This document shows positions 2,677-8,471 of a stretch of DNA of 24,422 bases, in pieces. The position numbers were made by a program, and so were the translations under genes. Where the stretch lies: the IMG/VR virus record IMGVR_UViG_3300048865_000005; one strand, written 5' to 3'. The DNA is from a virus (Duplodnaviria; Heunggongvirae; Uroviricota; Caudoviricetes). The stretch's first letter is position 1. Every line of letters begins with the position of its first letter. The notes below the pieces were generated by a model. That model did no database searches. It was given only the letters and a program-made list of their open reading frames with translations, and was not told where the DNA came from.

Positions 2677-4158
2677 TTATGTGTTCTCTTTATTTGATGT
2701 GGAGGAGTTGCCACTATTCCCGGTAGCGTCACCTGTACCGGAAGGCAGACCGCTTTCCATACCAGCACCGGATTTACTTTCTTTTGCTGGCAGATATTGA
2801 GTTCGCGGCTCTTCTTCAGCATCAATAGGCTTAGCGCCCAATGCAGTTCGTGTGATGTTCAGAATTTCACGGTCAACTTCAACAGCACCGACTGCAACAA
2901 TTCGTTGAACTGCTTTAGATAGTGCATCCAAATCTTGAGATTCCAATTCTTCGAAATCCCAATAAGGCAAATCGCCTTCGAGTGACCATCCGTTCTGCCT
3001 AAACAAAGTGTCACGGAGTTCTTTAAGTGTTTCTCTCATTCCGATTAACTTATCTTGAACAGCCATTGTCACAAGACTTGTCTTAGTATCGGATAAGGAA
3101 TAACTACCTACACCGCTCTGTCCCATTTGCAGAACATCAGCCCATAGTGCCTGTAGGATTGTGTTGTTGTAGCGAGAGATAATTGCTCCTGTATCGTACT
3201 GCTTAGCTCCTGTTGAGCTAATAAGATCGAAGTCGAACATAAGTTCGCCTGACTCGTCGCGGTCTGATGGAACAATTACATAGGCTTGTTCATTAGATTG
3301 AATGTTTTTACCAATCTCTGTATAAGCCTTTGTGGTAGCTTTTTCTTCTTCGCTAGCATCATTTGCTAAGTAGCGAGAGGGAATCTTGAAACGAGGAATA
3401 CCGCCTAAATCACGAGTGACGCCAATGGCCTCTTGCTCTTCGATTGCAGTACGATATTTCCATGCGTAATAGCACTTAAGTAGTGGAGACTTACCTTGCG
3501 GGTTTCCACGAGTACTATCCGCAGTAAAAAGTAAGAACTTATTACGTCTTAGGAATTTCTTATCGAGTTTCTTATCTGCACTCTTTCCTGAAGTCCAGTA
3601 GTAAGAGTTGAAGAAATCTACGATTAAGTTAGGGTCTTGCCATACGCCTTTCAGTTCACGTCCGTCTTCGCTAAACTCCCAACGTTCGATTGTGTCTTGA
3701 GAGCGGATAGGAAGTTTACGAATACCATAGAGGTTATCGTCGTATTTACTTCCGTCTTTGTGGCGACGTTTACGAAGTACAATTTCATGTACTGAGAAAC
3801 CGTATGTATAAAACGATACTGCTTCTTTGATGAATGAGTACCAACTATGCTCCATATCATCTTGGCACTGGCGTAAATATTGAGCTTGTTTCTTGCACAG
3901 TTCCGAAGCGCTAGGGGGTTCTTTAACAACCCAATTTGTACGGCTAATCATCACTTCGAAGAGGCTCAGACCAGAGGCAATGATTGCGTCATTACCCATC
4001 TTTTTAAATGTCTTTGCCGCCATAGGAAATTGAAGGTCTCTTCGAGACTCTTCTAAAATGACACCGTTAATTTCTTTTAAACCGATAGTACCTGTTTCAC
4101 CTACCGGGATTTTCGGAACCGGCTGATTGCCTGCTTGTAATTGAAGTGTTTCAGCCAT
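2677..4158 (-). CDS. Portal protein (493 aa)
   Basis: Size, position immediately after terminase, and GNPQGKSPLLKCYYAW and RDLGGIP portal-type motifs. Confidence 0.85.
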   Translation of the reverse strand: MAETLQLQAGNQPVPKIPVGETGTIGLKEINGVILEESRRDLQFPMAAKTFKKMGNDAIIASGLSLFEVMISRTNWVVKEPPSASELCKKQAQYLRQCQDDMEHSWYSFIKEAVSFYTYGFSVHEIVLRKRRHKDGSKYDDNLYGIRKLPIRSQDTIERWEFSEDGRELKGVWQDPNLIVDFFNSYYWTSGKSADKKLDKKFLRRNKFLLFTADSTRGNPQGKSPLLKCYYAWKYRTAIEEQEAIGVTRDLGGIPRFKIPSRYLANDASEEEKATTKAYTEIGKNIQSNEQAYVIVPSDRDESGELMFDFDLISSTGAKQYDTGAIISRYNNTILQALWADVLQMGQSGVGSYSLSDTKTSLVTMAVQDKLIGMRETLKELRDTLFRQNGWSLEGDLPYWDFEELESQDLDALSKAVQRIVAVGAVEVDREILNITRTALGAKPIDAEEEPRTQYLPAKESKSGAGMESGLPSGTGDATGNSGNSSTSNKENT

Positions 4159-4173
4159 TTGTCCTTCTTATTA

Positions 4174-5607
4174 TTATTTTATTTTGAAAGCATTGGATTG
4201 AGTTTGGATTGGAACAGCAAACGCGGGAAGTCTTCGATCTTGAGCTAGCTCTATAAAAGCATCACTAGTAGCGTCTACTTGATCGTCTTTATCTTTTTTG
4301 CTACCAGTAAAGCCTTCAAGCTCGAAGAAGTAATCGTCGTTCCACTCGCCTTCAACATAATCAATAAGTTCAGCTTCAGAAGCAGCGGCAAAAGGCTGGA
4401 ATCGAACAATTTTCGACTTATTAGTAGGCCGCATCTTTGCGTAGAAGCCTTCTTCAATAAGCTCTTTAATCATCATCTGCCCGGAAGACTTACCGGCTTG
4501 TCCCGGTTCTTGGGGGAGAATGATTTTTGTACCGGGAGGGTCGGATTTAGCAGTACTTATAATGTTCTGCATTACCTCGCCAAATCTCGCCCTGAATCTA
4601 ACTACGTCAACTATGATGTATCTTCCGGCTTTCGTTTTCGCCATTAATACACCAGCCGTCCAGTCAGGATTCGGGTTTACATCAGAAGGTAGTGTTCCGG
4701 CTATATCCCATGCTCTTACATATGAAACAATATCTTGGTCCCATAGATTGACAGTTGTTAACCACTCCCGTTTGAAATAACCAGAAGCGCTTTCACGAAC
4801 ATACCAATTACCGTCTAGAAGTCTTGCCCGTTCAACGCCCTTCAAACCCATAAGGTTTGCTACGTATTTTGGGTTAATCTTCTGAACAATCGGATTATCA
4901 CGAACAGTTGCAGAGATGAAAGTGAAGCTAAGTGCGAACTCTTCAGGAATACCGTAGTTGGCTAATAGCTCTTCTTTAGTATCACCCCAAACGAAGTCAC
5001 CTTCTTGGAAGCTGAAGTAACGTAACGTACCGTCTTTACTTCTATCTGGTGTACCATCTTCGTTAAGATATGGCTCAACCCACTTTCTTAAGAAATGGTC
5101 TGCATCAGGGTTACACGTAATCTTTAAGTGTGGTCTAACTTCCGGGCAACTTGGGTTTCGCATACGAGACTGAATATACTGAATCATATGCTGGGTAAAT
5201 TGTGTTCCTTCATCTACATAGAATAAGTTAGCTTCGGAACCTTGCCAGTTAACATCAGCATCATCGTTTTCGAAGTGCTTTAAATAGATTTCTGCACCGG
5301 ACTTATGGAATACAAATTTCCCGTCTTTAGCTCTCCACGTAAACTCATCAGGGCTATAAGCCATACCGAACAATCGCTTACATTTAGTAAGCAAGCCACC
5401 CGGACCTGTAAGTTGTGGGGTAGTTCGACGAGTCATTACACCAATGAAGTTAGGTGTATCTGTGTATTTTAGAAAATCGATAACGCCAATTTCAGACTTA
5501 CCGGAACCTGCCGCACCGCCAAAAAGCGTAACATCAGCTTCAGAAGTCATGTACATTAACTGACGATCAGAACAGGGACCGGGAAGTTTTTTATTTTCTT
5601 CGGTCAT
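4174..5607 (-). CDS. terL: Terminase large subunit (477 aa)
   Basis: Walker A FGGAAGSGKS, Walker B FYVDEG, coupling motif TCNP, and nuclease domain RAWDIA ... DDQVDATSDA. Confidence 0.95.
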   Translation of the reverse strand: MTEENKKLPGPCSDRQLMYMTSEADVTLFGGAAGSGKSEIGVIDFLKYTDTPNFIGVMTRRTTPQLTGPGGLLTKCKRLFGMAYSPDEFTWRAKDGKFVFHKSGAEIYLKHFENDDADVNWQGSEANLFYVDEGTQFTQHMIQYIQSRMRNPSCPEVRPHLKITCNPDADHFLRKWVEPYLNEDGTPDRSKDGTLRYFSFQEGDFVWGDTKEELLANYGIPEEFALSFTFISATVRDNPIVQKINPKYVANLMGLKGVERARLLDGNWYVRESASGYFKREWLTTVNLWDQDIVSYVRAWDIAGTLPSDVNPNPDWTAGVLMAKTKAGRYIIVDVVRFRARFGEVMQNIISTAKSDPPGTKIILPQEPGQAGKSSGQMMIKELIEEGFYAKMRPTNKSKIVRFQPFAAASEAELIDYVEGEWNDDYFFELEGFTGSKKDKDDQVDATSDAFIELAQDRRLPAFAVPIQTQSNAFKIK

Positions 5608-5636
5608 ATATTTTTATTATTATTGTTATTATAAAT

Positions 5637-5716: not shown

Positions 5717-5804
5717 TGGCGGAGACGCTTCGATTCGAACGAAGGGAGCTTTTACACTCGGTGGGGTTCAAAGCCACTGCATTAAACCGCTCTGCCACGT
5801 CTCC
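5717..5804 (-). tRNA. tRNA-Ser(UGA), 88 nt
   Basis: GGAGACG/CGTCTCC acceptor, G73, encoded CCA, long variable arm, T-arm CTTCG-TTCGAAT-CGAAG, anticodon loop TT-TGA-AC. Confidence 0.85.
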
Positions 5805-5808
5805 ATGT

Positions 5809-5884
5809 TGGCGAATCAGGTAAGAGTCGAACTTACAACCTTCGGTTTTGGAGACCGACGCTCTGCCAATTGAGCTACTGAGAC
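5809..5884 (-). tRNA. tRNA-Trp(CCA), 76 nt, two acceptor-stem mismatches
   Basis: Anticodon arm TCGGT-CT-CCA-AA-ACCGA, T-arm GTAAG-TTCGACT-CTTAC, G73 and CCA. Confidence 0.85.
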
Positions 5885-5890
5885 ATATAT

Positions 5891-5974
5891 TGGTGGATGT
5901 TCTTGGACTCGAACCAAGGGTGTATCAAAGTACCGGGTTACAGCCGGTTGTCATCGCCGCTAGACTAAACATCC
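5891..5974 (-). tRNA. tRNA-Tyr(GUA), 84 nt
   Basis: GGATGTT/AACATCC acceptor, A73, CCA, anticodon arm ACCGG-CT-GTA-AC-CCGGT, extended variable arm. Confidence 0.9.
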
Positions 5975-5978
5975 AAAT

Positions 5979-6056
5979 TGGCTGGCATATCTGGAATCGA
6001 ACCAGACTCTATGCTGATTAACAGTCAGCCGCATACACCTTGTTTGCTTTATGCCA
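5979..6056 (-). tRNA. tRNA-Asn(GUU), 78 nt
   Basis: TGGCATA/TATGCCA acceptor, G73, CCA, anticodon arm GCTGA-CT-GTT-AA-TCAGC, T-loop TTCGATT. Confidence 0.9.
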
Positions 6057-7426: not shown

Positions 7427-7801
7427 TTAATTAGGACGTTCTAGGTCCGCTTTAGTTGGTAGATAATCTAAGGAGAATCGCGGCACAACTTCCTGTTTAT
7501 CTTCATCAGCATCCGGGGCAGGAGGCTCTTCGCCTTTCACCATCAGACGCAATTCATTAAGTGTTGCCTCTTCAGTAAGAGCAGCACGAGAAACAGTAAC
7601 GAGCGTATTCACAGTCCATTTAGAGGAGGAGAGTATTTCTTTATCGACTGATATTCCGTTAACGCTATCTGAAATATTCTTAAATGCTTGATCTTGCAAG
7701 AGTAGAAGTTTTTCTTCAGTCTTTCGCAACTTTGACTTTTTAAGCCGAGGGCCGGGGGGAGCACCTTTGGGATTATTAACAGAGCCTTTCTTAGCAGCCA
7801 T
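7427..7801 (-). CDS. Candidate terminase small subunit (124 aa)
   Basis: N-terminal KKGSVNNPKGAPPGPR resembles the G-x-x-x-NP-x-G-x-P-x-G motif (DUF5681 type) seen in small terminases. First large gene of the packaging/head operon. Start revised to ATG 7801 behind a GAGGA SD. Confidence 0.5.
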   Translation of the reverse strand: MAAKKGSVNNPKGAPPGPRLKKSKLRKTEEKLLLLQDQAFKNISDSVNGISVDKEILSSSKWTVNTLVTVSRAALTEEATLNELRLMVKGEEPPAPDADEDKQEVVPRFSLDYLPTKADLERPN

Positions 7802-7857
7802 GTCATTCCTCATTATTGTTTTTATTTTGGATGCTTACTCCCTGAATAAACATTCGA

Positions 7858-7899
7858 AATAAAAATAAGGCTACTAAGCAAGGAGGGAACTTAGCAGCC
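7858..7899 (-). terminator. Intrinsic terminator
   Basis: GGCTGCTAAG-11 nt loop-CTTAGTAGCC (10 bp, with a G-U pair only on the minus strand), followed by TTATTTTTATT. Confidence 0.75.
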
Positions 7900-8030
7900 T
7901 ATAATGTAAACTCATGGAAGAGGAGGAGGAGACACAAGTTTACAAAGACACACTCGGTTAGAGTGTTACGCACATTTGCTTGAATTTCTTCTTATTAGTG
8001 CGGGAGGGAGGAAACATTATTTTAAATCAG
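7860..8030 (-). ncRNA. Candidate ~170-nt sRNA with anti-SD pyrimidine tracts (ends approximate)
   Basis: Consensus promoter upstream, terminator downstream, three hairpins, three CCUCC-containing tracts, no convincing ORF. Confidence 0.6.
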
Positions 8031-8036
8031 AGAACC

Positions 8037-8065
8037 ATTATAGCACGAAAAGTCGAAATTGTCAA
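8037..8065 (-). promoter_or_regulatory. Sigma70 promoter TTGACA-17-TATAAT with extended -10 TG
   Basis: Perfect consensus hexamers at 8065-8060 and 8042-8037. Confidence 0.85.
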
Positions 8066-8091
8066 TACTTATAATTGACTTTTTAATAATT

Positions 8092-8256
8092 TTATGGGTT
8101 ATTTCTCTTAAAAGCGCTAACTTTTTCAGTTAGAGACTCAAAAGCATATTCGAATTTGAAATCTTCGCTTTCATCATCTGCTAGGAGAAAGAGAATGTCT
8201 TGATTACATTCGCAGATTAGTTCACCGCAATCTTCACAGTAGGTAAGTTGTTCCAT
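8092..8256 (-). CDS. Small Cys-motif acidic protein (54 aa), not in ORF track
   Basis: MEQLTYCEDCGELICECNQDILFLLADDESEDF...; downstream of promoter 8387-8414; no clear SD. Confidence 0.5.
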   Translation of the reverse strand: MEQLTYCEDCGELICECNQDILFLLADDESEDFKFEYAFESLTEKVSAFKRNNP

Positions 8257-8386: not shown

Positions 8387-8414
8387 ATTATACCACGTTT
8401 TTCCAAATTGTCAA
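8387..8414 (-). promoter_or_regulatory. Sigma70 promoter TTGACA-16-TATAAT with extended -10 TG
   Basis: Consensus hexamers at 8414-8409 and 8392-8387. Flanks resemble those of promoter 8037-8065. Confidence 0.8.
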
Positions 8415-8471
8415 TACTTGTAATCAGATATTTATGCTTTTGTCAAACTTTTTTTTGCCCACTCTACAGCT

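Follow-up and report, generated by a model that had tools for sequence, protein, structure and literature searches.

A 24,422-nucleotide (nt) stretch of DNA from an uncultured soil phage (the window; IMG/VR record IMGVR_UViG_3300048865_000005) carries, on its minus strand from about 8030 to about 7858, a locus that is best explained as an independent non-coding RNA gene of some 165-173 nt, and RNAs of this kind occupy the equivalent genome position in at least eleven other, related phage lineages. The RNA is real, its pyrimidine loops are a selected feature and, together with its counterparts, it forms a previously uncatalogued, modular phage RNA family. Judging by the motif that the loops expose, the RNA probably controls translation, and we put at about even the chance that it acts in trans by pairing with the Shine-Dalgarno (SD) regions of messenger RNAs (mRNAs), as a phage analogue of the cuckoo RNAs. 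The locus was read on the minus strand between 7600 and 8400 and compared with related phage contigs (designated by L-numbers), namely TerL-related IMG/VR loci and contigs with homologues of the 124-amino-acid (aa) gene that lies downstream of the RNA; homologues of the 124-aa protein were gathered from large protein collections (108 representative clusters) and from IMG/VR.

The locus has its own promoter, its own intrinsic terminator and no conserved open reading frame (ORF), as expected of a stand-alone small RNA (sRNA) gene. The original prediction, which had been made from the letters of the window alone, proposed a perfect TTGACA-17-TATAAT promoter firing leftward from 8065-8037 into about 170 nt without a convincing ORF, and both parts of this held: a promoter scan gave the site the full score of 12/12 with a TGn extension, a score reached at only one other place in the whole window (8414-8387), while an ORF of 19 codons from 8017 has neither an SD nor a counterpart in relatives. 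The U-tailed terminator that it proposed was also found, but not as drawn, the better structure being a 12-base-pair (bp) stem with the 9-nt loop UCCCUCCUU; an automatic terminator scan missed this hairpin because the scan was limited to loops of 8 nt or less. An SD-like GGGAG at 7834-7839, about 25 nt past the terminator, has no start codon within reach and is complementary to CUCCC of the 5' tract of the RNA.

The minus strand folds into four hairpins (H0 to H3, Table 1) with a free energy of -44.9 kcal/mol (z = -6.85; all 200 shuffles were less stable), compared with -39.7 kcal/mol (z = -3.27) for the plus strand, on which the 12-bp stem of H2 is not formed. The H2 stem has two G-U pairs and that of the terminator one or two, all of which would be A-C mismatches on the plus strand; the original prediction had cited such pairs in support of the minus strand. 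Three pyrimidine tracts, one of them a 16-nt loop on a 12-bp stem, had been pointed out at the coordinates where we also find them, and partition-function folding leaves them almost wholly exposed (mean unpaired probability 0.92-1.00); the third is at 7888-7880. Two further hairpins, at 8002-7969 (A/G-rich loop) and 7966-7950, had not been described. The loop of the first reads AAU AAG AAG AAA and has an unpaired probability of 0.78, and the counterpart of the second has a CU-rich loop in most relatives. Loop-loop pairing of the A-rich loop with the CU loops was considered and dropped, as it reaches 5-6 bp only.

Table 1. Coordinates of the RNA gene, its neighbours and corresponding features in related phages (window positions unless an L-number is given).
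Feature	Position	Strand	Details
Sigma70-type promoter of the RNA	8065-8037	minus	TTGACA 8065-8060, 17-nt spacer, TGc and TATAAT 8042-8037; start predicted near 8030
Operator-like half-site ATTATAAGTA	8058..8075	minus	next to and partly over the -35 box; matches palindrome ATTATAAGTACTTATAAT at 15/18 positions
Second 12/12 promoter	8387..8414	minus	identical half-site upstream; transcripts from it enter the RNA gene
5' single-stranded tract UUUCCUCCCUCCC (anti-SD-like display 1)	8002..8014	minus	mean unpaired probability 0.92
Hairpin H0	7969..8002	minus	5-bp stem; A/G-rich loop of about 24 nt with UAAUAAGAAGAAA, an (ARN)n / AANAANAA-type motif
Hairpin H1	7950..7966	minus	6-bp stem, loop UAACC
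Hairpin H2	7905..7944	minus	12-bp stem 7944-7933 / 7916-7905, two G-U pairs
16-nt loop of H2, UCUCCUCCUCCUCUUC (display 2)	7932-7917	minus	unpaired probability 1.00
Hairpin H3, intrinsic terminator	7857..7900	minus	12-bp stem, 7900-7868, loop UCCCUCCUU (display 3)
U-tail UAUUUUUAUUU	7867-7857	minus	directly after H3 hairpin
Upstream 54-aa gene	8092..8256	minus	Cys-rich N-terminus, motif FKFEYAFES
Downstream 124-aa gene	7427..7801	minus	opens the packaging/head arm (SGNH-type gene, tRNAs, TerL, portal)
Four tRNA genes	5717-6056	minus	packaging arm
Portal gene	2677-4158	minus	head/packaging arm
(AAU)n / AANAANAA-type leaders	portal 4164-4176; 139-aa gene (808-1227) 1242-1254; TerL 5608-5630; 124-aa gene 7802-7825		
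CU-loop module 5' of 124-aa gene homologues			L017/L018/L019/L020, L022, L003, L004/L005/L006, L033/L037/L038, L031, L035, L039, L040, L044
Homologues of the small acidic protein	L022 1998-2177; L003 2453-2617; L017 2365-2568; L033 977-1141		
GC-rich terminator-to-gene stretches	L017 2790-3000; L018 730-840; L019 40-280; L003 2806-2985; L039 1200-1438		
PAK_P3 element (L028, KC862299.1)	4634-4710		annotated sigma70-like promoter, then 10-bp hairpin with 13-nt CU loop UUCCUCCUCCUUC, in the 5' untranslated region (UTR) of gp161 (DUF5681)

The modules of the relatives were found with a simple pyrimidine-loop hairpin matcher and by direct reading of the sequences; because the MAFFT alignment across lineages is not structural, the matcher and within-lineage alignments were used and the family has no covariance model. 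Each module lies on the strand of the 124-aa gene homologue, 50-400 nt upstream of it, and in ten lineages a near-consensus sigma70 promoter stands before it; the RNA of L004 begins right after a tRNA without a promoter, and those of L031 and L006 begin right after a protein-coding gene. Every family RNA has three to five hairpins (z = -4 to -8 against shuffles for most), two to four of them with CU loops, and at the 5' end there is usually one with an A/G-rich loop of some 20 nt, as seen in L017, L022, L004 and L040. A last hairpin equivalent to the terminator is found in eleven relatives, usually followed by UAUUUUAA, and the sense fold is equal to or better than the antisense fold in 11 of 14 members. 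The RNA is taken to be non-coding because no ORF is common to the lineages and a 1-nt indel falls within a loop between L017 and L018.

The hairpin matcher gave 31 matches in 254 kb of non-redundant loci, about two thirds of them within modules, against 4-15 in locally shuffled controls. No module was found with some more distant carriers of the 124-aa gene (L029, L036, L041, L042, L045 and L046), and Pseudomonas phage vB_PpS_SYP, which has a distant homologue of this gene, has no CU-loop RNA. When IMG/VR was scanned with an exact pattern of the window's 40-nt hairpin there was no match, and the pattern 'UUUUCUUUCAUUUU ... CCUCUCCU' gave one true match (L026, which is the same as L022); its matches in L025 and L027 are false and lie inside coding regions. 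At the DNA level neither the locus nor the whole window has a relative among 50,697 phage records and plasmids, where tRNA fragments alone were matched.

The loops are what selection keeps, because their C/U-only CUCC core stays while the stems around them are replaced or compensated. Apart from the A/G-rich 5' hairpins, hairpin loops of at least 7 nt are 79-100% pyrimidine and almost all contain CUCC (further examples are CCUCUCCU, CCCUCCU, UUCCUCUCCUCCU, UCCCUCUCUCCUC and UUUCCUCCUCCUU), and the core CUCC/UCCU, the complement of GGAG/AGGA, is kept in loops across at least twelve diverged lineages. A lack of loop conservation in relatives was one of the outcomes by which the original prediction would have been refuted, and the loops are conserved. 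Between lineages the stems share no sequence. Within them, a single double compensatory change (C-G to U-A) distinguishes L004 from L006 and every pair is intact; L017 and L018 differ by four changes that are all retained as G-U wobble, and L033 and L037 by ten one-sided changes, mostly to G-U, while in L005 the stems of two hairpins have been replaced outright with the CU loops retained.

Pairing with SD regions is the simplest mechanism for such an RNA because the exposed core CUCC/UCCU complements GGAG/AGGA. Host RNA polymerase would start at the consensus sigma70 promoter with its phage operator-like half-site and stop at the last hairpin and U-tail; in the RNA three C/U-only tracts are exposed, the 5' one as a single strand and the others in hairpin loops, and these would pair with the purine-rich ribosome-binding regions of mRNAs and lower their translation. 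Candidate targets would be the strongly SD-led genes of the phage itself, genes of the host, or both, and the head/packaging genes, with their (AAU)n leaders and weak SDs, would be poor ones. The original prediction had noted weak or absent SDs and A-rich leaders for several head-operon genes; these are indeed seen, whereas the plus-strand genes at 10.6-20 kb mostly have strong GGAGG-type SDs. A more sweeping form of this idea, which we consider unlikely, is a global translation switch in which the RNA would be abundant from replicating genomes and would mask the GGAG-type sites of host mRNAs and of early and middle phage mRNAs, the ribosomes passing to head/packaging mRNAs that initiate via (AAU)n leaders; if true, a whole clade of 88-107-kb phages would share an RNA counterpart of T4 RegB.

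Duplex energies were computed between the three tracts of the window RNA and gene start regions, with internal controls. The means of the best predicted duplexes were -13.8 kcal/mol for the 30 plus-strand genes (20 of which reach -12 or lower), -9.0 for the 7 head/packaging genes and -9.8 for the internal controls, figures that are consistent with class-selective silencing but close to tautological, because CUCC loops match any SD. When loop flavour (CCUCC versus CUCUCC) was set against SD flavour (GGAGG versus GGAGAG) with the RNA masked, there was a trend in the expected direction (SD ratios of 1.4-2.1 in L004, L005 and L006 versus 0-0.4 in L033, L040 and L031), which comes from small counts in lineages that are not independent and is not counted as evidence.

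This near-circularity is one of several points that weigh against pairing in trans. Another is the conserved loop UUUUCUUUCAUUUU of L017 and L022, which has no SD complement and no complement of any kind in the related loci examined. Others come from expression data, which consist of assembled contigs only, from soil runs, and cannot rank abundance. The stretch is present in five public soil runs, two of them metatranscriptomes; in one of these a contig runs from 8362 to below 6800, straight across the terminator, and in the second the contigs break at 8006/7997, a break that is not interpretable, with no rise in depth over the RNA. The contigs cover the locus in RNA libraries without delimiting a 170-nt RNA; they neither reveal a discrete transcript nor rule one out. 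Of the multivalent anti-SD RNA originally proposed, the minus-strand non-coding gene with promoter, terminator and selected loops stands; that it acts in trans to block SDs is plausible. Finally, the RNA is invariably on the same strand as, and directly 5' of, the 124-aa gene family, as a cis element would be, and its counterpart in phage PAK_P3 is a single hairpin within the 5' UTR of a gene, with no terminator.

A role in cis for the downstream operon is a serious rival for the last two reasons, albeit one that we hold to be rather doubtful. The promoter at 8065 would be that of the packaging/head operon and the 170-nt RNA its terminated leader or attenuator, with read-through needed late; alternatively, or in addition, the CU loops would pair, within the same transcript, with the purine-rich region where ribosomes bind the first gene and so set its translation. 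Such a role is favoured by the layout, in which the 124-aa gene, the SGNH-type gene, the four tRNAs, TerL and portal are all on the strand of the RNA and just 66 nt, without a sigma70-like promoter, lie between the terminator and the ATG at 7801 (a phage-specific late promoter is possible), as well as by the RNA-library contig that spans the terminator. The RNA is, however, separable from the gene: a tRNA-Leu sits between the RNA terminator and the gene in L020, and 180-300 nt of unrelated sequence do so in L017, L003 and L039. The fold contains no antiterminator pairing that would compete with the 12-bp terminator stem, the SD of the first gene is weak, varies by lineage (GAGGA, AAAGG, AGAGA, AGGAA) and does not match the loops in a conserved way, and three selected displays are more than a leader would need.

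Pseudomonas phage PAK_P3 bears on the same question. The order there of a small Cys-rich gene, a sigma70-like promoter, a CU-loop hairpin and a gene with a KG..NP.GRP start is like that of the window, and the loop segment CUCCUU is exactly complementary to the gp161 SD, AAGGAG, 9 nt downstream of the stem, a geometry that would allow a pseudoknot and that favours action in cis. PAK_P3 and PAK_P5 have the same hairpin and leader but differ at 11 positions of the promoter region, which points the same way, and the hairpin segment is identical in 33 Nankokuvirus genomes; against this, the hairpin alone folds no better than shuffles (z = -0.1). Unlike the window RNA, the PAK_P3 element has one hairpin, no terminator and no A-rich hairpin and so is part of an mRNA leader, and the similarity of gp161 to the 124-aa protein is confined to 17 residues (E = 5e-4). 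We regard the PAK_P3 hairpin as probably a reduced relative of the window RNA. The published small RNAs of PAK_P3, sRNA1 and sRNA2 (PMC4933390), were rejected as relatives; they are GC-rich, tRNA-linked and different RNAs.

The A-rich loop raises the matter of protein partners. The RNA has an unpaired (ARN)n motif and a U-rich 3' end, as class II Hfq sRNAs do, and since this combination is the sequence signature of an Hfq-bound sRNA, Hfq may have a part in its action. The exact 10-mer UAAUAAGAAG of the H0 loop recurs only in the portal-gene leader (4173-4164), and late leaders have more near-copies of it than expected (10 matches with no more than one mismatch, as against 3.7 +/- 2.0), so the RNA and the late leaders may share a binding factor. 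It could further be supposed that the RNA is a decoy for proteins, its C/U tracts trapping Rho (as rut-like YC-rich sites) or binding S1 and its A-rich loop and U-tail titrating Hfq, by which late phage mRNAs would escape host control; CrcZ titrates Hfq in Pseudomonas. The tracts are G-free, C-rich and unpaired as this would require, the H0 loop has AAUAAGAAGAAA in addition to the shared 10-mer, and the (AAU)n repeats of the late leaders belong to the motif class bound by the distal face of Hfq. The specific CUCC/UCCU core in essentially every loop nevertheless goes beyond C-richness and points to pairing with GGAG, each RNA has one A-rich motif compared with several in CrcZ, and loops of 8-16 nt are short against the 60-80-nt site of Rho, and we find a decoy quite improbable.

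The complementarity of UCCU/CUCC to (A)GGA motifs is the sole support in the RNA itself for a sponge of GGA-rich Csr/Rsm RNAs (RsmY/RsmZ-like), which would release CsrA/RsmA, and GGA loops are indistinguishable from ordinary SDs as partners. The nearest phage relatives do suggest a host of the Pseudomonas type, in which such a sponge would have its place: TerL of the window (4174-5607) is 52% identical to that of Pseudomonas PAK_P3-type phages, and the 322-aa protein encoded at 1252-2220 shares 38-40% identity with Pseudomonas syringae phage proteins. Even so, we consider this explanation very improbable, and pairing with the SD regions of mRNAs remains the one that we prefer.

The promoter of the RNA carries an operator-like half-site and is therefore probably under the control of a phage regulator, rather than simply constitutive. 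The half-site ATTATAAGTA lies at -45 to -28 of the RNA promoter and in equal register at the 8414 promoter (8407-8424), and the full 18-bp palindrome ATTATAAGTACTTATAAT sits over the -10 boxes of seven early promoters on the minus strand, between 21253 and 24396. This looks like one phage regulator acting in two registers, at the -10 boxes of early promoters and at the -35 region of the 8414 and 8065 promoters. Adapter-flanked contig ends at 8362 and 8366, in two metatranscriptome runs, lie about 20 nt past the start expected for the 8414 promoter; they are compatible with 5' ends from that promoter and suggest a defined RNA end there.

Upstream of the RNA, a homologue of the 54-aa gene is the left neighbour in L022, L003, L017, L033 and L040. 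It encodes a small acidic protein with a conserved C-terminal F/W-x-F/W-E-Y-A-x-E-S, in some copies with CxxC pairs, and always precedes the RNA promoter. The downstream 124-aa protein combines a helical hairpin with a basic N-terminus and an acidic tail; it obtained no Pfam or PHROG assignment and a PDB sequence search was empty, while one member of its family matches DUF5681. Its structural model (helical hairpin, predicted local distance difference test score (pLDDT) 75) had no Foldseek match at E <= 0.001, small terminases appearing among weak matches only, and that it might be a small terminase is a guess.

Several other elements were seen around the homologues of the 124-aa gene. In L018 (844-1994) the gene is split after about 13 codons by a 206-aa ORF (1015-1635), the remainder restarting at 1635; the ORF may be a homing endonuclease, because an HNH/NUMOD4 ORF lies close by in L017. 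Downstream of the gene, L040 (2812-3020) and L004 (5747-5973) have group I introns (Rfam RF00028; 82 and 72 bits). Between the RNA terminator and the gene some relatives have 110-300 nt of GC-rich, apparently structured sequence (Table 1) that is wholly different among close relatives, and this stretch may be an insertion hotspot for RNA genes or may hold further non-coding RNAs.

To our knowledge a function has been established for very few small RNAs of virulent phages, and not for the T4 band C and D RNAs or the PAK_P3 sRNAs; no description of a lytic-phage sRNA with anti-SD loops was found in the literature. In the present family the anatomy is clear, the genomic position is fixed, the promoters are strong and a conserved motif points to pairing with ribosome-binding sites, and a model of the family, missing from Rfam, would improve the annotation of phage intergenic regions. 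Were it to act in trans, phages would have independently evolved the multi-loop anti-SD design of the alphaproteobacterial cuckoo RNAs, and this could account for the separation of gene classes (SD-led and A-rich-leader) during translation in a phage that lacks an RNA polymerase of its own. With a probable reduced relative in the cultured phage PAK_P3, the question is open to bench testing.

Among known systems, one with a similar layout is the late leader of lambda, in which the PR' promoter, 6S RNA and the tR' terminator are followed by late genes that Q antitermination releases. Both have a strong promoter and a terminated RNA of about 170-190 nt just before terminase/head genes, with no recognisable promoter (in the window, none of sigma70 type) between. 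No Q-like antiterminator was seen among the neighbouring genes, which were scanned without a dedicated search, and no qut site was recognised. The sequence of the lambda 6S RNA is not known to matter, whereas the loop sequences of the phage family are kept by selection. The T4 endoribonuclease RegB inactivates a class of mRNAs via the GGAG of their SDs and so favours later genes; it is a functional analogue only, without homology, being a protein nuclease that cuts sites which the phage RNA would mask. Similar in the presumed mode of action are the C-rich-loop sRNAs of Firmicutes (hairpins H7, H13 and H14 of Staphylococcus aureus RNAIII, RsaE, and Listeria LhrC with its UCCC motifs), which likewise have redundant C-rich loops, one of them in the terminator loop, and pair with SD regions to block initiation. 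They have no sequence relationship with the phage RNA and are encoded by Gram-positive hosts, and the phage loops are longer (8-16 nt) and purely C/U.

No family of Rfam 15, its curated cis-regulatory RNAs included, reaches its gathering threshold in the window or comes near it in the eleven relatives. The best permissive match of the window is to ar14 (RF02344; score 26.9 bits with the threshold at 58.8; E = 0.0039 for a search of 501 nt), in which both CU loops are aligned to the CCUCCUCC loops of the model, and ar14 gave no match at E <= 1 in the eleven related loci. The ar14 (alpha-r14) family is that of the cuckoo RNAs, which include CcsR1-4 (RSs0680a-d) of Rhodobacter and NfeR1, SmelC397 and others of Sinorhizobium. 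Cuckoo RNAs have two to four adjacent hairpins with the anti-SD-like loop CCUCCUCCC and stems that are free to vary, and have been described only in alphaproteobacteria (PMC4615179). The phage RNAs resemble them in having two to four neighbouring hairpins with anti-SD-like C/U loops and a 3' terminator, and in stems that vary by compensatory change while the loops alone are conserved. They differ in that their loops are mostly CCUCUCC or CCUCC variants, the exact 9-mer CCUCCUCCC being absent from the window loops, and in their additional 5' hairpin with an A/G-rich loop. All phage members, moreover, are on phage contigs near terminase, portal or tRNA genes, not on the chromosomes of Rhizobiales or Rhodobacterales, and have a fixed place before the packaging module in genomes of lytic type. 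Membership of ar14 fails on score, exact motif and taxon, and the phage RNA is best treated as an independent analogue of the cuckoo RNAs: the multi-hairpin anti-SD design is already known from these, and what is new here is a phage-borne, positionally fixed RNA family.

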